Shown here in pieces: positions 4,890 through 52,793 of a stretch of 53,469 bases of DNA. The position numbers were made by a program, and so were the translations under genes. The notes beneath the pieces are model-generated. The model searched no databases. It worked only from the letters and a program-made list of their open reading frames with translations, and was not told the origin of the DNA. The DNA lies in NCBI GenBank assembly GCA_963575745.1, contig CAUYUJ010000312.1:62001-115469 (forward strand). The letters run 5' to 3'. Origin of the DNA: Prorocentrum cordatum. Lineage: Eukaryota. Position 1 is the stretch's first letter; each line of letters starts with the position of its first letter.

Positions 4890-5865
4890 CGCTGCCCTTC
4901 GTCGTGGCCCCGTTGCAGCCCTTCGTGGCCCCCTCGCTTTGATTCGTGGCCCCGTTGCAGCCCTTCGTGGCCCCGTTGCAGCCCTTCGTGGCCCCGTTGC
5001 AGCCCTTCGTGGCCCCCTCGCTCCCCTTCGTGGCCCCGTTGCAGCCCTTCGTGGCCCCCTCGCTGTCATTCGTGGCCCCATATATGTCTGCCCTTAGCGG
5101 CCCCCACTCGTTCATTCGCGCCCGTTGCTCTGGACGCCCGAAATGGGCACGGAAAGAATGGGCACGATGCCCATCAGCAGTTCCTGTTCATTTTGAACAG
5201 GGCTCGCTGTCCACGCCGCCGCGGCCTGTGTCCATTCGAGACAGGAGGCCGCCCGCCCAACAGCGGCCGCTGTTGGTTTGGGACAACATTTGTTGTTGGG
5301 CATTGTGCCCATTCTTTCCGTACCCATTTCGGGCGTCCAAAGTTGCAGCCCTTCGTGGCCCCCTCGCTCCCCTTCGTGGCCCCGTTGCAGCCCTTCGTGG
5401 CCCCCTCGCTGTCATTCGTGGCCCCATATATGTCAGCCCTTCGTGGCCCCCGCTCGTTCATTCGCGCCCGTCGTGGCCCCATATGTATGCGCTTCGTGGC
5501 TACGCTGTCGCCTTCAGTGGCCCCCTCGCTGCCCTTCGTGGCCCCCTCCCTGTCCTCAGTGGCCCCGTCCTGGCCCTCTGCAGCCCAATCTGCGTATGCC
5601 GTTCGTGGCCCCCGTTCGTTCGCACCCGTTGTGGCCCCATGTGCATGCCCTTCGTGGCCCCGCTGTCGCCGTTTGTGGCCCCCTCACTGTCCTACGTGGC
5701 CCAGTTGCTACCCTCAGTGGCCCCATCGTTGCTTTCTGTCGCCTCGCATTATCTGCCCTTCGTGGCCCCCGCTCGTTCGCGCTCTTCGTGGCCCCATACG
5801 CATTCCCTTCGTGTCCCCACCGTCGCCCTTCGTGGCCTACTTCGTGCCCTTCGTGGCCCTGCTGT
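4890..5865. repeat. ~21-bp minisatellite (GCCCTTCGTGGCCCCGTTGCA and variants)
   Basis: Core CTTCGTGGCCCC repeated dozens of times; also present at 3478-3710 and 6780-7015. Confidence 0.92.
5128..5342. mobile_element. 215-bp MITE-like element with ~50-bp TIRs
   Basis: Left arm CTCTGGACGCCCGAAATGGGCACGGAAAGAATGGGCACGATGCCC matches the reverse complement of the right arm (CTTTGGACGCCCGAAATGGGTACGGAAAGAATGGGCACAATGCCC); flanked by a 131-bp direct duplication, 4997-5127 and 5343-5473. Confidence 0.85.
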
Positions 5866-16022: not shown

Positions 16023-16101
16023 GGGGGCCACATGCGAACCCTATCCCTACCCCCCACGACTTCGGAGGGGGGTAGGGGTGGGGGTTCGCATGTGGCCCCC
16101 C
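16023..16101. mobile_element. ~80-bp fold-back element (GGGGGCCACATGCGAACCC family) flanked by ~40-bp direct repeats
   Basis: Arms are reverse complements; GCAGAGT-(G)n-ATGGCCCGTCGCGGCGT lies on both sides (15977-16022, 16103-16140). Confidence 0.8.
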
Positions 16102-36682: not shown

Positions 36683-37050
36683 AGAGAGGAGGGAGGAGGA
36701 GGAGGAGGAGGGAGGAGGAGGAGGAGGAGGAGGAGGAGGAGGACTCCCCCCCCCTCTCCCTAGGGACCCCCCTCCCTCCCGGTGTGCAGGTCGGCCGCCC
36801 GCCGCCCGAGCCCGGGTACGCCGGGAGCGAGGGCCCGCTGCCGCGCACGGGCGAGCCGCCCGCTCCGGGGTGGGGTGGGGGGGAGTCCTCCTCCTCCTTC
36901 TCTTCCTCCTCCTCCTCCTCCTCCTCCTTCTCCTTCTCCTTCTCCTTCTCCTCCTCCTCCTCCTCATCATCATCATCGTCGGAAGGGGAGGGGGGGGGGG
37001 GCGGAGGTCGGCGGCTGCGGAGGGCGTGGCTGCTCGGGCCGAAGGAACGG

Positions 37051-37166
37051 TCAGAGACCCGAATCATCAGGGGTGACTCGGGTCAGGGCTAGCTCGGGTT
37101 CGTTCTTCGGGAGTCCGAACCCGAGTTACCCCGGACCCGCGTTACCCCGGATAACTCGGGCGTCCA
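37051..37166. mobile_element. 116-bp fold-back element flanked by ~59-bp direct repeats
   Basis: Left arm GAGACCCGAATCATCAGGGGTGACTCGGGTCAGGGCTAGCTCGGGTTCG resembles the reverse complement of the right arm (GACGCCCGAGTTATCCGGGGTAACGCGGGTCCGGGGTAACTCGGGTTCG); DRs at ~36992-37050 and 37167-37225. Confidence 0.75.
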
Positions 37167-37360
37167 GGGGGGGGGGCGGAGGTCGGCGGCTGCGGAGGGC
37201 GTGGCTGCTCGGGCCGGAGGAACGGGGGGGATAGGCAGGGCGCCATACGCGAACCCTGCCCCTGGCGGCCCGCTCCGGGGTGGGGGTGGGGGGGGGGGGA
37301 GGTCGGCGGCTGCGGAGGGCGTGCCTGCTCGGGCCGAACGGACGGGGGGATGGGCGGGGC

Positions 37361-37508
37361 GCCACACGCGAAGCCTGCCCCTGCCCCCCACGATCTCTGA
37401 GGGGGAGGGTGGGGTTCCCTCCGTGCGGGAGCTCCCCAGCGAAGTGAACCCCACCCTCCCCCTCAGAAATCGTGGGGGGGTAGGGGTAGGGTTCGCGTGT
37501 GGTCCCCT
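37361..37508. mobile_element. ~150-bp TIR element, GCCACACGCGAACCC family
   Basis: Homologous to 43781-43936 including internal GCGAAGTGAACCCCACCCTCC; no flanking duplication seen. Confidence 0.8.
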
Positions 37509-37703
37509 AATAGGGAAAAGGGGGGGGTACGAAGTCTGCTGCATGCAGCTGGTTTCGGCCCCGCCGCCGGGCCCATTCCTCGACACATGGGCGCCTCCGG
37601 CGCCGGGAGGCGCCGGGGAATCAGCTACGCGAGCTGATTCTCACCCCCCCCCTTTGCTATCCCCCCCCTTTCGCCCGGCCGAGCTGCGGGGGAGGAAAAT
37701 CAG

Positions 37704-37893: not shown

Positions 37894-37947
37894 TCCGAAA
37901 AGCCCAGGCCCCCTCGTGTCATGAAGCCCTTCCCTTCGTGGCTAGGC

Positions 37948-38072
37948 CTGGCGGCGAACACGGCGCGGCCGACGCCGTCGAGGGCCCCGCGCGCGAGGTC
38001 CGCCAGCGACGAGGCGTGGGGCACCTCCTCGCCCATGCGGAGCTCCCTGGCGGGGAGCTCCGGCGGCATCGC
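37948..38072 (-). CDS. Candidate internal exon (phase 0 to phase 2): AMPPELPARELRMGEEVPHASSLADLARGALDGVGRAVFAA, product unknown
   Basis: All 41 codons end in G or C; AG|G acceptor and CAG|GC donor; the plus-strand frame sharing third positions is an S/R/P/A/T-rich shadow. Confidence 0.5.
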
Positions 38073-38457
38073 CTCTCGGCAGCTTCAGGCCCACCCCACT
38101 TGCAATACCCCCTCGGGTTAGGAAACAGTCACGACGGGATGCTTTTCGGTCTTTTCTGCCTCTCGGGGCCCTCAACGGGCCTCGGGACCGTGGAAGAACG
38201 GCTCAGGATGAAAAACCGGTCCCGGGGAGTGGGTCTGGACCTCAGGGGGTCGCGCCATGAAAAATTTATCATGTCGGGGGTCTGGGAGGTAATTATCCAT
38301 ACTGCTATCCGTCGCCCATTTTCCCTCCTTTTGGGCCTCCTGGGAGGCCCTCGTCGTTACTGGGGGATTCGCCTCGGGTTTCTGGTCAGAGTGCACCGTG
38401 CACCCTGCGAGAGGTCCGGGGAGTAGCGGTATGGGTACCGTTGGGTTTTCCCAGTGG

Positions 38458-38651: not shown

Positions 38652-39884
38652 GCCAGGGTGTGATTCGCGATCGGCGCCGTTGGGGCTTTGGGGGCGCGAT
38701 GCTGTCCTCGTCGGGCCCCCTCGGGGCGCGGCGGAGAGTTCAGTCGAGGTTCTCGCTCGCACCCCAGGGTGCCAGTTGCAAACCGCACCTTTTTTCCAAA
38801 CCGCACCCTTCGGAGTCGCCGAGGGGCGGGCTGGGACAAACGGAGCGGACAGGAGGGTGGCGCGAGCGGTCGGTCACCACATTTTCGGGCTGGGTGACAA
38901 GCTACAGACGAGCTTTGTTCGTAGGTCGACCCTGCCAAGCCGAAGGTATATGCTTGCGCCCTGGGTGTTGGTTGCCCATGCCTTCTGCGTTCCTATGGCA
39001 GTGTGGCCCTCGGCAGGGTCCGGTGTCCTCCCTCGCGTCCCCTACAAGCAGTCTCGACTGTAGCTGATGCGCGAGGCGCTGGCCAGGGCGCCGATGCCCG
39101 CGCGGCTCCGGAGGAGGGGCGACGGCTGAGGCGTTGGTGGCCGGTGCCGCTGCTCCTCCCGGGAAGCCCTCGCCGCCACTGCTGGATCCTCCTCGGAGTC
39201 CTGGTCAGAACGCGCTCCAGGAGAGGTCCGGGGGGGGGCAACCAGGGCAGGTAGGAGAGGGTGGCGCGGGGGGTGGGGGGCAGCCCTCTTGCCGATGCCA
39301 TTGGCCTTGCCTCACTGTTGCCTTCTTGGTTCTGCCCGGAGGCTCTCTTCGCCACGGCTGGATTCGCTTCGGAAGCCTTGGGCAGAGCGCAGCACCCCGA
39401 GAGAGGTCCAGGGAGTCCCCACTTCCAAGACGGCGGGAGGCTTCATAGAAGGCGGGTGCATTCTCAGAAGGGCCTGGGGGTCTTCCAGGAAGGCTTCTTC
39501 GAAGCCAGGAGGGATTCCAAGAAGCCATCCGCTTTCTTAGAACCCTTCCGCCTTCTTAGAAGTCGCGCTCCCCTGGCGCGACCCCTTGGTGCGCGCCGCC
39601 GAGGGGGGGTGGTCAGGCTGGGTGGCTGAAGGGCCGAGTCTCAGAGGAGGAGAGAGATGGATATTCACACACACACGTGCATCTATCTATCGACATTTAT
39701 ATATATATATATATATATCTATAACTCCGCGGGCTGGGCGTTTTACCTGAGACTGCCTTACCATATATGGCCCTGCAGCTCTTTCAAGATAACAACTTGT
39801 TGTTACAGATCTGTATACGTATATACATACATTCATATATACATACGTATACGTGCATATACTTATGAAAGAAAATCACTGCTC

Positions 39885-41471: not shown

Positions 41472-42951
41472 AAACGGCCCCGTAAGACAGGTTCGCTACC
41501 TTGTGAGTGCGAGTCCCTGCGGGTCAGTGTGGGGAGAGCAGCTGTTGGCCCTCTCGCGTGCCCATGACGATGGGGGCGCGCTGGGCGAGCAGGGCTCCCA
41601 AGCATGGGGGAGGACGACGACACGACCTCACTCGACGCAGGGAACAGAAGAGAGGATGCAGGAGGCCCCTTCGTGCCAAGCTTGTGCTGGTGGGGTCTAA
41701 CTATTAGTCTACCTACGACCTGCTGCGCCCACGCTTCTAACAGAGTCCTTCCCTCTCTAGGTTCACTTTTCTTAGGACGAGGAGGAGGAGGAGGACGAGG
41801 ACGAGGAGGAGGACGAGGACGAAGACGAGGAGGAGGAGGAGGAGGAGGAGGAGGAGGAGGAGGAGGAGGAGGAGGATTGGGAGCAGGAGGAGCATGAGGG
41901 ACCAGGAGAGAGAGCGAGAGAGAGAGAGAGAGAGAGAGAACGGCCCTGCGAGGCGAACCGCCGCTCGACGCCCCGGGCCCGCCGCCCGCCGCCCCCCGCG
42001 AGCCTGGCTGGTGCGCCGTGGCCTGACCCGCGGGCGGGGCTGCGCCAGGCTTGCCCGGCGGAGGCCCGGGAGGCGCCCGCTCGAAGGCCGTGGGCGGGCC
42101 AGCGCCCGCTGCACTCGCAGCGTGAAGGCGGCCCGGTGCGACTACCTCGAGCTTGCTTTCCCGTCGGTGTGGGTCAGGGGCTGCGGCCCGCAGGCCAGGG
42201 GGAGTCCAGCAGCGACGGCATGCTCTTGGCGCGTCGGGGTCGCCTCGTTTGGAGGGGACACTGCGGACTGCGCCGGGCGCACGGGGCCCGACCCCTCCGC
42301 CGCCCCCGCGGGCTGCCGTGCCGAGGGGAGGTGAACGCGTGCGTCCATACAGCCGGGGCCCTGCAGAAGGAACCCTTTTCTTTGGGGAGGGGCTCGGTGT
42401 TCCTTGATTGTTCTACAGTTTGCCTTCTGTTTTCCTGAGGTTTTCCATGGGAAATCGAAGTTCAACTTACGTGAGAAAGCGGCCCCGTTCCTTATTTAGG
42501 GTTCCTTAGGTCAACGCCCCGACTGTAATAGCTCGTTCGCGCGAGGCCCGGTGAGCAAGCAGTGGTGCAGCCAGGGCTTCGTCCTGCCGAGCGGAAAAGG
42601 ATCGCCGCCGGCCTCCCCCCCTCCCCCTCAGGTTCCCCTCTGGCTCCCCCATGCCTCCCCTGCCGAGCGGCTTGGGAGGCATGGTGCCTGCCGTGCGCTG
42701 ATTTCTTTATCTCAGCGGCAGGTGGCGTGGATGCCTTCCTCCCTCTGCTCATCCTACTTCTTTCTTACCTTATCTTATCTTATCATCCCTCCCCTGCCTG
42801 CTCCCCCTCCCTCTCCCCCCCTGTCGGGGATGGCCTCCCCCTCGACTTGCTTTGGGTTCGGGGCCACTGCCCCCGGCACAGGCCGGTGACTGCCCGCCTC
42901 CCCTGGGGGACGTCTCCGCGCTCCGCTCCGGCTCCGCTCTGGCCCCCCTCT

Positions 42952-43121: not shown

Positions 43122-43780
43122 CCTCTTGCCAGTCTGCCCGATGGGGTCCGATGGCATCCTGAGCCACAGCCTGGTCCACAGAAGGCCTGTCCTGGCATCG
43201 GGGCCTCCGCTTTGGAGCCCTCGTCGGGCCCGAGCTCGCTGGGAGGGGACCCGTGCCCCGCCGAGACGACGAAAGCGACAACAAATTCGGATGCAACTCC
43301 TGGGAGGTCAAATTCAGAGCTCGCCCTGGTCCGAAATCCGGCTCAATCCGGTTTGTTCCCGCTTGCTCCTGCCTAGTCCCGTTGAACCCGGCTTAATCCC
43401 GCTTGATCCGCGGTCCAATCCGGAGTAGCAGCCCCATCCTTCCGACGAAGACCTCCCAGTAGTTTCAGGAGGGGGCAAAGACACACAGGCACAATTCACT
43501 GTCGATTCCCCAGGACATCTGGGAAGCCATGGGAGGTGGGGGGGGAAGACGAAAATCCCCCCAAAATGGGAAAGTATGGGGACTCCTGTCACTTGTGTGT
43601 ATTTCTTTGTGTGCCCTTGGGCCTCCTCGCGGTTGCCTCCTGGGCCTCCTGGTGACTGGCCGGGGCGCCGTCTGCCGACGTGCGCGGCAGCCTCGTGCCG
43701 TGCCGGTACGGCGGCGACCTCAGCGGCGCGGGCGCCCCGGGTCTGCAGGTCGCCGGCCTGCGCCTGACTAGCGACATCGA

Positions 43781-43936
43781 CAGGGGGCCACACGCGAACC
43801 CTGCCCCTACTCCCCACGAGTTCTGGAGGGGAGGGCTGGGTTCACCTCGTTCGAGAGCTCCCGAGCGAAGTGAACCCCACCCTCCTCCTAAAAAATCGTG
43901 GGTGGTAGGGGTAGGGTTCGCGTGTGGCCCCCTACA
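43781..43936. mobile_element. 156-bp TIR element flanked by 41-bp direct repeats
   Basis: TIR AGGGGGCCACACGCGAACCCT; DR GGTCTGCAGGTCGCCGGCCTGCGCCTGACT(A/G)GCGACATCGA at 43740-43780 and 43937-43977 with 1 mismatch. Confidence 0.9.
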
Positions 43937-44261
43937 GGTCTGCAGGTCGCCGGCCTGCGCCTGACTGGCGACATCGAGCGAGCCTGCGCGATCAGCACGC
44001 CCAGAGATCGAACGTATTGAAGAAAGCACGACGGGTTTTTTGTTGTCGCTATTTCTTCGGCCTCTGGGGGCCCTCGCCGGGCCCCAGGACCGTCAAAAAA
44101 CGACTCAGGATGAGAAATCGGTCCTGGAGAAGGGGTCGAGACTTCTGGGGACCCCGTCTTGAAAAAATCACGACATCGGATCTATGGGAGCCGCGGTCGG
44201 TCAAGGCTGAGCGATCCACGCGGCGCCACCGAGCAAGTCGTCACTACCCGAACCCGCCGTA

Positions 44262-44686: not shown

Positions 44687-45230
44687 CCCACGTACATTAA
44701 CACGGTCCCCCAATCCAGGAGACCGTCCGCATGATGCGAACGTTCGCGCAATGCGTACTCTCGAAAACAGCGTGGATCCATTTGCGTGTGCGTCGTGCGT
44801 CCTGCTGTCGCTCCTCACCTCCTGCCTCCCCCCTCCTCTGCCAGAAGCACACAAATCTCTCACAAAGTCTCCCGTCGAGGGACATGCCCGACTTTAAGCC
44901 TCGCCTCCCCCCTCCCTGAAAGTGCCACCTGGTGCGCCGACTCCGCGGCGGGCGCCCGCCCACCACGAAGAGAGCGACCAGCCTTAGCCCTGCTGTCGTC
45001 CTCTCCGTGGGCCCCCCTCGGCGCACGCCTCCCCTCGTCTGAAGTCGGGCCTGTCCCTCGACAGGGGGCATATTCAAAAAACACAAAAATAGGCCACGAT
45101 CTTTTGTTTATTTTTGACGGCTTTTTTTCCCAACCCTCCTTGGTTGGGTATTCGTTTGGAATAGAGCACTGTGGTCGCGTCCCTTCTTCTCCCGCCTCCC
45201 ACCTCCTCCTGCCTTCTCTTCGCCGACGAC

Positions 45231-46765
45231 GGGGGCTGCGATCTGCGAAACTGTCGCCACTTTCGAGGGCTGCTGGTGGGTCCTGCGGAGTGAGGCACCG
45301 CGCAGATCTGAGCGGGACCTCGCCGTGCCTGGGGGGCTGCGATTTGCCAAACCATCGCCACTTTCGAGGGCTGCTGGTGGGTCCTGCGGAGTGAGGCACC
45401 GCGCAGATCTGATCTGAGCGGGACCTCGCCGTGCCTGGGGGGCTGCGATCTGCGAAGCTGTCGCCACTTTCGAGGGCTGCTGGTGGGTCCAGCGGAGTGA
45501 GGCACCGCGCAGATTCGAGCGGGACCTCGCCGTGCCAGGGGGGCTGCGATCTGCGAAGCTGTCGCCATTTTCGTGGGCTGCTGGTGGGTCCTGCGGGGTG
45601 AGGCACCGCGCAGATTTGAGCGGGACCTCGCCGTGCCAGGGGGGCTGCGATCTGCGAAATTGCCGCCACTTTCGAGGGCTGCTGGTGGGTCCTGCGGAGT
45701 GCGATCTGAGCGGGACCTCGCCGTGCCAGGGGGGCTGCGATCTGCGAATTTGTCTCCACTTTCGAGGGCTGCTAGTGGGTCCTGCGGAGTGAGGCACCGC
45801 GCAGATCTGAGCGGGACCTCGCCGTGCCAGGGGGGCTGCGATCTGCGAAATTGTCGCCACTTTCGAAGGCTGCTGGTGGGTCCTGCGGAATGAGGCACCG
45901 CGCAGATCTGAGCGGGACCTCGCGGTCCCTGGGGGGCTGCGATCTGCGAATTTGTCGCCATTTTCGAGGGCTGCTGGTGGGTCCAGCGGAGTGAGGCACT
46001 GCGCAGATCTGAGCGGGGCCTCGCCGTGCCTGGGGGGCTGCGATCTGCGAAGCTGCCGCCCTTTCGAGGGCTGCTGGTGGGTCCAGCGGAGTGAGGCACC
46101 GCGCAGATCTGAGCGGGACCTCGCCGTGCCAGGGGGGCTGCGATCTGCGAATTTGTCTCCACCTTCGAGGGCTGCTGGTGGGTCCTGCGGAGTGAGGCAC
46201 CGCGGGGATCTGAGCGGGACCTCGCCGTCCCTGGGGGGCTGCGATCTGCGAAACTGTCGCCACTTTCGAGGGCTGCTGGTGGGTCCTGCGGAGTGAGGCA
46301 CCGCGCAGATCTGAGCGGGCCCTCGGCCGTGCCTGGGGGCTGCGATCTGCAAGACTTTCGAGGGCTGCTGGTGGGTGGGGGGCTGCGATCTGCGAAACGG
46401 AGTGAGTGGCACCGCGCAGATCTGAGCGGACCTCGCCGTGCCTGAGGGCTGCGCTGCGCGATCTGCGAAGCTGTCGCCACTTTCGAGGGCTGCTGGTGGG
46501 TCCAGCGGAGTGAGGCACCGCGCAGATCTGAGCGGGACCTCGCCGTGCCTGGGGGGCTGCGATCTGCGAAACGGTCGCCACTTTCGAGGGCTGCTGGTGG
46601 GTCCTGCGGAGTGAGGCACCGCGCAGATCTGAGCGGGACCTCGCCGTGCCTGGGGGGCTGCGATCTGCGAAACCGTCGCAACTTTCGAAGGCTGGTGGCG
46701 GGTTCAGCGGAGCGAGGCTCCAAACAGATCTGAGCGAGACATCGCAATCCTTGGGGGGCTGCGAG
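45231..46765. repeat. 101-bp tandem satellite, about 15-16 units
   Basis: Unit GGGGGGCTGCGATCTGCGAA.CTGTCGCCACTTTCGAGGGCTGCTGGTGGGTCC.GCGGAGTGAGGCACCGCGCAGATCTGAGCGGGACCTCGCCGTGCC; starts at 45231, 45332 and onward. Confidence 0.97.
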
Positions 46766-46972
46766 CCTCACGAATGCCGCTCGCAGAAGTAGATGCGCCC
46801 ATGTCACGTCATCACCTCCGTATAACGTCTCCCAAGCTACTCATGCCCCGCATTGCGCAGGGGTTGGGTACGTCGCCAGTGTAATTGAACGTTTATTATT
46901 TTTCGCCCGAAATCCGCCTGCTGTAGAGGGACACGCCTGACCTAACCCTCGTCCCCTCCTCCCTTGGCTTTG

Positions 46973-52592: not shown

Positions 52593-52793
52593 GGTAGGGG
52601 AACGAGAAATGACATACACATAAAAACCCGGAGGTCCGCGCGGATTTCTTGGATCCGCGCTGGACCACCCTCCCTGGCGCGCGGAGTGCGCAAGGGGCGG
52701 CGCCGAAGGCGCCGCCAGGGGGCCCCAGCGCGGATCCGAGAAGTCCGCGCGGACCTCCGAGTTTTTATGCTCATGTCGTTGGTCGTTCCCTGA
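52593..52793. mobile_element. 201-bp TIR element flanked by 16-bp direct repeats; candidate introner
   Basis: ~65-bp TIRs (GGGAACGA...CATAAAAAC.CGGAGGTCCGCGCGGA.TTCT.GGATCCGCGCTGG); DR CGTAGACCTGGACTTT at 52577-52592 and 52794-52809; internal hairpin GGCGGCGCC-GAA-GGCGCCGCC. Confidence 0.88.

Follow-up and report, generated by a model that had tools for sequence, protein, structure and literature searches.

According to the available parts of the sources cited here, dinoflagellate introners that take both splice sites from their target site duplication (TSD) have TSDs of 3–8 nt (bioRxiv 10.1101/2020.10.14.339549), dinoflagellate introner TSDs are elsewhere given as 3–9 bp (PMC9860276), and the introner families in about 40 rows of a family table have TSDs of 2–10 bp (PMC12130899). 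Introner elements of Amoebophrya carry inverted repeats of 8–20 nt and direct repeats of 3–5 nt (PMC7789003), a pattern that served as the search rule in the Prorocentrum cordatum genome paper (bioRxiv 10.1101/2022.07.25.501386). The identical repeated intron boundaries (IRIB) of dinoflagellates span 2–11 bp (PMC5032977). Intron gain by tandem duplication of AGGT has been shown experimentally (PMC3265369), and intron gain by staggered-break repair in Daphnia is associated with flanking repeats of 4–12 bp (PMC4202315). Variable or long TSDs are described for Replitron-1 and some Chlamydomonas Helitrons (PMC10288648) and for Dualen and R9 LINEs (PMC9977147); the terminal repeats of Replitrons are short and direct, and RG precedes their insertion site (PMC10288648). 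No introner with duplications of tens of bases was found in the literature covered, with preprint supplements, most rows of PMC12130899 and subscription journals largely outside its scope. The available part of bioRxiv 10.1101/2021.04.23.441226, considered as a parallel, held nothing that fits a palindromic element.

The window analysed here, the whole stretch of 53,469 nt from P. cordatum, is rich in repeats, long microsatellites and many short hairpin elements, and its G+C content around the locus was 0.57–0.68 per kb. The locus consists of two 41-bp direct repeats with a period of 197 and an identity of 40/41, the sole mismatch being an A at 43770 against a G at 43967. The chance expectation for such a repeat pair in the whole window is about 4e-15. 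The 156 nt between the repeats fold as a single long hairpin, made up of a 154-nt element with 76-bp palindrome arms and two further bases, and the fold of 43740–43977 had a z of -13.8, with 0/200 shuffles as strong. The repeats adjoin the element termini at both ends within 0–2 nt. The element ends were placed at 43781 and 43934 because the match to the sister copy ending at 37509, and likewise that to two contigs of run X2, breaks off at 43934–43935, and for the same reason 43935–43936 appear to be filler. Pfam gave no match in the frames crossing the element, and five miRNA-precursor matches in Rfam were all under the gathering score, as generic hairpins. The coordinates are collected in Table 1.

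Table 1. Positions of the features of the locus, its candidate introns and its sister copies, in coordinates of the window.
Feature	Position	Strand	Remarks
First copy of the 41-bp duplication	43740–43780	+	Private A at 43770
Palindromic non-coding element, MITE-like, 154 nt	43781–43934		Ends CAGGG (left) and CCCTA (right); complementarity of the arms 82%
Additional 2 nt separating the element from the second repeat (filler or 'fuzzy end')	43935–43936	+	Create second CAG/GT acceptor
Second copy of the 41-bp duplication	43937–43977	+	G at 43967
Candidate intron, 197 nt, GT..AG	43749–43945	+	Both CAG/GT sites from the duplication; splice compatibility from sequence
Equivalent alternative candidate intron, GT..AG	43741–43937	+	Acceptor at element end; same product as 43749–43945
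Two alternative GC..AG cuts (43758–43954 and 43764–43960)	43758–43960	-	Less likely strand
Coding-like stretch upstream of the cut	43659–43748	+	GC3 28/30; G at first codon position 16/30
Continuation of the plus frame to the stop at 44018–44020	43946–44020	+	GC3 6/7 (43946–43966), 11/12 (43967–44002), 1/5 (44003–44017)
Contig of run X1, 114 nt, depth 3.8	43658–43769		No difference; last 2 letters unaligned, from private base 43770
Full-length sister copy	37355–37509 (match 37357–37509)		86% over 153 nt; without long duplication, possible 5-bp repeat only
Short sister copy, 78 nt	16023–16100		Terminal bases missing; flanking duplication about 34–45 nt, containing G run

The locus resembles the TIR introners in that these are non-autonomous, have inverted ends and take both splice sites (AG/GH, the stroke marking the splice point) from the duplicated target, and in that removal would restore the exon exactly, several cuts are equivalent and either strand is possible. 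TIR introners differ in having short TSDs that are mostly fixed per family, whereas the duplication at the locus is 41 bp long and varies within the family, and its splicing is only predicted. Instead of a short family-specific TSD (2–11 bp in the literature covered), the family showed 41 bp here, about 34–45 at 16023 and at most 5 at 37355. If spliced, the locus would work like a class-14-type introner. The Amoebophrya and P. cordatum pattern likewise comprises inserts that form hairpins and have direct repeats at the ends of the intron; at this locus, in contrast, the palindrome takes up the entire element, the direct repeat measures 41 nt and the candidate ends are canonical. In IRIB, as would be the case here, a repeat that holds AG/G lies at both intron ends and occurs once in the mRNA, but the repeats are 2–11 bp long and the available part of that account describes no element. 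Both in AGGT duplication and in Daphnia, duplicated exon sequence supplies donor and acceptor as it would at this locus, where, unlike in those cases, the two copies are separated by an element of a repeat family. A further study is said to deal with intron gain by tandem AGGT duplication. In outward form, the duplications of variable length and the extra bases at one end (16–130 bp and 0–7 bases over five events) resemble those of Replitron-1; the element ends here are, however, inverted, the left flank ends in GA and the flanks misfit the RG rule in the plus orientation. Dualen and R9 LINEs differ in being retroelements without terminal inverted repeats.

Ends of the form G[TC]..AG/G were found at 4/42 equivalent positions of a 197-nt cut, two on the plus and two on the minus strand, which bears out the splice sites that the initial annotation had placed in the repeat on both strands. 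The cut at 43741–43937, which it had not named, uses the two extra bases after the element for its acceptor. All four canonical cuts retain the G of the second repeat and remove the A of the first, and removal at these cuts restores the target exactly. A frame check of the joined sequences also confirmed that excision of 197 nt leaves open frames on both strands, as had been proposed. Open frames are weak evidence here, because a minus-strand frame of 167 codons (43592–44092) already crosses the whole insert without excision. The presence of sites on both strands is itself functionally meaningless, since splicing can use one strand only.

The frequency of such sites was estimated, each time from 4000 draws, in random non-simple 41-mers of the window. 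AGG[TC] was present on a given strand in 27–29% of these and on both strands in 8%; for AGG[TCA] the values were 40–42% and 17%, and the stricter CAGG[TCA] occurred on both strands in 0.9%. Per strand, such motifs were found in 1–3% at 5 bp and 4–7% at 8 bp. The argument of the initial annotation that a long TSD is likely to duplicate an AG/GY site therefore holds as arithmetic (for AG/G[TCA], about 40% at 41 bp against 3–7% at 5–8 bp).

The host stretch had a coding-like composition. GC3 was 45/49 codons in the plus frame, compared with 42/54 in the minus frame put forward initially; open stretches of equal length with GC3 as high numbered 46/11,887 in the window, a count that includes overlapping windows and other exon-like pieces. 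That minus frame mirrors the plus frame as its in-register antisense. A second open frame on the minus strand is rich in Pro, Ser, Ala and Thr, with C at the second position in 26/53 codons, a shadow-frame make-up. The coding strand, left undecided by the initial annotation, is thus likelier to be plus, as both the codon pattern and the orientation of the nearest upstream gene favour it. A stop lies just 5′ of the coding-like stretch (43653–43655), and after it the plus frame contained no ATG and no AG/G acceptor except one inside the repeat. That this internal CAG/GT is the true exon start, with the upstream 90 nt intronic, is disfavoured by the codon pattern, which is strongest upstream, and by the X1 contig, which crosses the site unbroken. 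Just upstream, three different inverted-repeat elements lie close together between 42954 and 43651, the first with a 6-bp flanking repeat, and these may have disrupted the 5′ end of the host exon. An 8-bp repeat at 42885 and 43651 was rejected as the TSD of a larger insert, as inverted ends were absent and there was an in-frame stop.

Searches for homologues returned 0/317 candidates for the plus peptide and 0/390 for the initially proposed minus frame, with queries of 40–52 residues that are short and weak as negatives. HMMER against 1.84 billion representatives gave five matches, all set aside: four were tandem-repeat or low-complexity proteins scored by summed weak stretches, and in the fifth no single stretch passed alone. 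An atlas search gave no usable match. In Pfam, five of the 122 open frames scanned, out of 185 listed for 35.5–53.5 kb, had matches, all under the curated cut-off, and 0/4 peptides of the locus matched at E up to 10. Nor did the Pfam search support a resemblance between the YGG motif and the terminal part of CRAL-TRIO domains. The best PDB match, cytochrome c-553 (E 0.076; 43680–43760, plus frame), was attributed to chance, as the aligned segment comes after the heme motif and the two-cysteine-histidine motif is not kept.

None of the sequencing runs listed for the locus is on record as RNA, and the best share was 0.17. Runs X1, X4 and X5 each contained one contig of 1.0–1.2 kb (depth 22.7–24.9) whose match starts at 41952, one base before AG/G, and covers 242 nt with 4 differences (1.7%). 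An exon-like piece at 36790–36850 joins in frame to 41953, with a stop at 42024–42026, and the last two bases of this piece would place the start of the contig match exactly at 41952. The regions 36790–36850 and 41953–42193 are probably the last two exons of a plus-strand gene. Since the contig match starts at this exon-like join, we infer that X1, X4 and X5 are RNA and that the plus-strand gene ends about 1.6 kb upstream of the locus. Minus-strand coding-like pieces were found at 37920–38075 (GC3 0.96) and 39060–39128 (GC3 1.0), inside the apparent last intron of this gene; a homologue search with the former returned 0/207 candidates.

Among the matches listed, only one contig covers the upstream flank of the element, in 1/3 sibling runs (X1, Table 1); X4 and X5 contained next to none of the words of the locus. 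The X1 contig starts 3 nt after the upstream stop and ends inside the first repeat, before the insert. Because it is unaligned from the private base of the first repeat, it cannot be the allele of the window in unspliced form. A spliced product would account for it, as would an allele without the insert or a strain whose two repeats both have G, and a strain difference at 43770 is plausible, since the same runs differ at 4/242 bases in the neighbouring exon. No contig bridging the insert was present among the matches listed for the four public runs. The only joint listed, at 42412–42480, falls in another repeat and has no bearing on the insert. Three regions without contig cover in all four runs (42592–42698, 43127–43233 and 44839–44945) were not counted as evidence.

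These results divide the intron gain proposed by the initial annotation. The duplication does look insertion-made, and the arithmetic holds; a live exon and the splicing of 197 nt found no support in a bridging record, a homologue or a 5′ boundary. We give about even weight to the reading that a splice-ready MITE with a long duplication inserted into a weakly used or broken coding-derived stretch, and that its splice compatibility is incidental. An exon with weak or no expression, or else a fragment of a gene, is the likeliest identity of the host stretch. As the host has no valid 5′ boundary and no homologue, and lies outside the frame of the neighbouring gene, the splice compatibility is probably incidental and not that of a selected intron. 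We infer that the insertion caused the duplication, by nicking of the target, in a plus-strand stretch of low function. A non-autonomous palindromic MITE-like DNA element would have inserted into a coding-derived stretch on the plus strand and duplicated 41 bp of target, either through two widely staggered nicks or through strand transfer and subsequent fill-in, and 2 filler bases would have been left at the right end. By chance, the target so duplicated would hold CAG/GT, so that the spliceosome could remove the element and one repeat exactly, and the element itself would not need to provide a splice site.

That the locus contains a working new intron is a doubtful proposition overall. On the plus strand it would mean that 43659–44020 is a real, weakly expressed exon, with a 5′ boundary that is non-canonical or mis-sequenced, from which the 197 nt are spliced out, and we consider this possible yet rather unlikely. 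The two ends carry a perfect CAG/GT, and GT, GC or GA donors with AG/GH acceptors are the dinoflagellate pattern, as given in the available part of bioRxiv 10.1101/2020.10.14.339549. As 197 mod 3 = 2, retention of the insert would shift the plus frame, which would then meet a stop within the second repeat. The codon pattern is strong on both sides of the insert, GC3 remaining high for 12 codons past 43966 (11/12, with the end point chosen after looking), which runs counter to an incidental compatibility, as does the fact that the sole mismatch lies in the copy removed by every canonical cut, though this is one base. The X1 contig, which lacks the A of the first repeat and begins close behind the upstream stop, points the same way, but it ends inside the repeat and not across the insert, and the strain difference would explain it equally well. 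The missing acceptor, ATG and homologue argue against a real exon.

Family-level counts rest on this window and the contigs of the four public runs. Besides the two sister copies in Table 1, neither of which lies in an evident exon, a family fragment was found at 37236–37263. The terminal motif of the element had 8 matches in the window at no more than 3 mismatches, against 0.68 expected, and contigs of run X2 contained further family copies with other flanks. Pattern scans for more copies returned 4 loci in metagenomes, 4 in viral contigs and 2 in prokaryote genomes, none of them a family member; a metagenome contig (L002:600–950) contained a palindrome of about 350 nt that is near-perfect but unrelated, a chance match of the scan. 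The element has the features of a MITE, being short and non-coding with terminal inverted repeats. The hAT superfamily has the terminus consensus YARNG, and the element termini fit it (left CAGGG, right end TAGGG on the other strand). The hAT transposon Ac makes an 8-bp TSD (PMC3744419); an 8-bp TSD was absent from the element, the 8 bases on each side being different.

Long duplications were also present at other hairpins in the window. Flush flanking repeats scoring at least 16 were found at 5/13 hairpin elements, with lengths of 130, 59, 41, about 34–45 and 16 bp, whereas 5/150 random placements scored at least 14 (Fisher p 2.9e-4 against the hairpin elements). By their ends, the five hairpins belong to two or three families, and each has 0–7 additional bases beside one of its ends. 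The surroundings are repetitive in three of the five cases, namely a degenerate satellite, a G run and a triplicated unit. AGG[TCA] was present in 2/4 of the other long duplications, which is no enrichment. The hairpins at 5126–5341 and 37051–37166 have different interiors and a common 11-nt terminal motif, with flanking duplications of 130 bp (126/130) and 59 bp (58/59), respectively, and 52593–52793 is a 201-nt hairpin of another family with CAGGG- and TAGGG-like ends and an exact 16-bp flanking duplication. A survey of the window gave 159 local repeat pairs, of which 83 did not lie in multi-copy arrays and were mostly parts of older tandem duplications; the 130-bp case was excluded by the array filter. 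The strongest hairpins among the 83 pairs were this locus and 52577/52794 (z -12.9 and -12.3), neither with a third copy. Given this, and given the long repeats flush at other hairpins, the 41 bp most likely arose through a process linked to the ends of the element. The window also contains a tandem array of about 16 copies of a 101-bp unit (45137–46860).

A separate question, weighed apart from that of intron or no intron, is whether the 41-bp repeat is a target duplication at all. A MITE with a short TSD may have inserted, and a local duplication may have followed or accompanied this through repair or alternative transposition, with template switching and hybrid-element or sister-chromatid events as candidate routes, which we judge unlikely. 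Local duplications are abundant in the window, and the full-length sister copy at 37355–37509 has at most a 5-bp repeat, both of which count against a long TSD. At 37167–37383 two copies of a unit of about 95 nt enclose a 26-nt insert without a hairpin; this insert copies the sequence just after the donor at 36851, which suggests templated repair. In maize, according to the available part of PMC3744419, alternative transposition makes tandem duplications with the element at the junction. The copy at 43781–43934, however, shows no remnant of a short TSD, and five separate events show long repeats flush against the ends of a hairpin, so that a process tied to the ends is required in any case.

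It is improbable that there is no new intron because the exon already ended at a G/GC donor in the duplicated sequence (43967/43968, or 43770/43771 in the G allele) and the element inserted into an existing intron. In this case the 114 nt of the X1 contig would correspond to an exon from 43659 to the donor plus one shared G at each end, the form to be expected of a contig with a dinoflagellate junction on either side. A GC3 of 0.69 overall after 43969 agrees with this, but GC3 stays high up to 44002; in the first repeat of the window the last exon position is occupied by A instead of G, and a contig of depth 3.8 can end anywhere. Intron gain on the minus strand, through one of two CAG/GC sites and an exon starting at CAG/G near 43983, is highly improbable: two GC..AG cuts, an open frame, a contig (X1) that fits either strand and the minus-strand coding-like pieces at 37920–38075 and 39060–39128 agree with it, but its frame is the antisense of the plus frame with a lower GC3, the other minus frame is shadow-like, no homologue was found and the neighbouring expressed gene is on plus.

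The preferred account of the locus, a MITE insertion with an incidental splice-ready duplication, is thus set beside an intron gain that is unproven and of a known kind. Dinoflagellate MITEs that make introns with both splice sites taken from the TSD have been described, and a further case would be ordinary; what differs here is the length of the duplication, and the notable feature is that several hairpin families have long duplications of variable length. It is a speculative suggestion, and more likely wrong than right, that the route by which several palindromic MITE families of this dinoflagellate have been mobilised produces long target duplications of variable length (5 to 130 bp, with a few filler bases), and that this locus is a clean intron caught in the act. 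If it were true, an element with a 41-bp duplication could become a clean intron without a splice site of its own, because such a duplication holds a coding-strand AG/G[TCA] in about 40% of cases, against 3–7% for 5–8 bp, and the transposon and tandem-duplication models of intron gain would be joined in one mechanism. Pipelines that search for repeats of 3–5 nt would miss such cases. Should long, variable duplications prove regular for these hairpins, the enzyme would be unlike a standard cut-and-paste transposase, and the ability to make introns would depend on the length of the duplication and not on evolved element ends.
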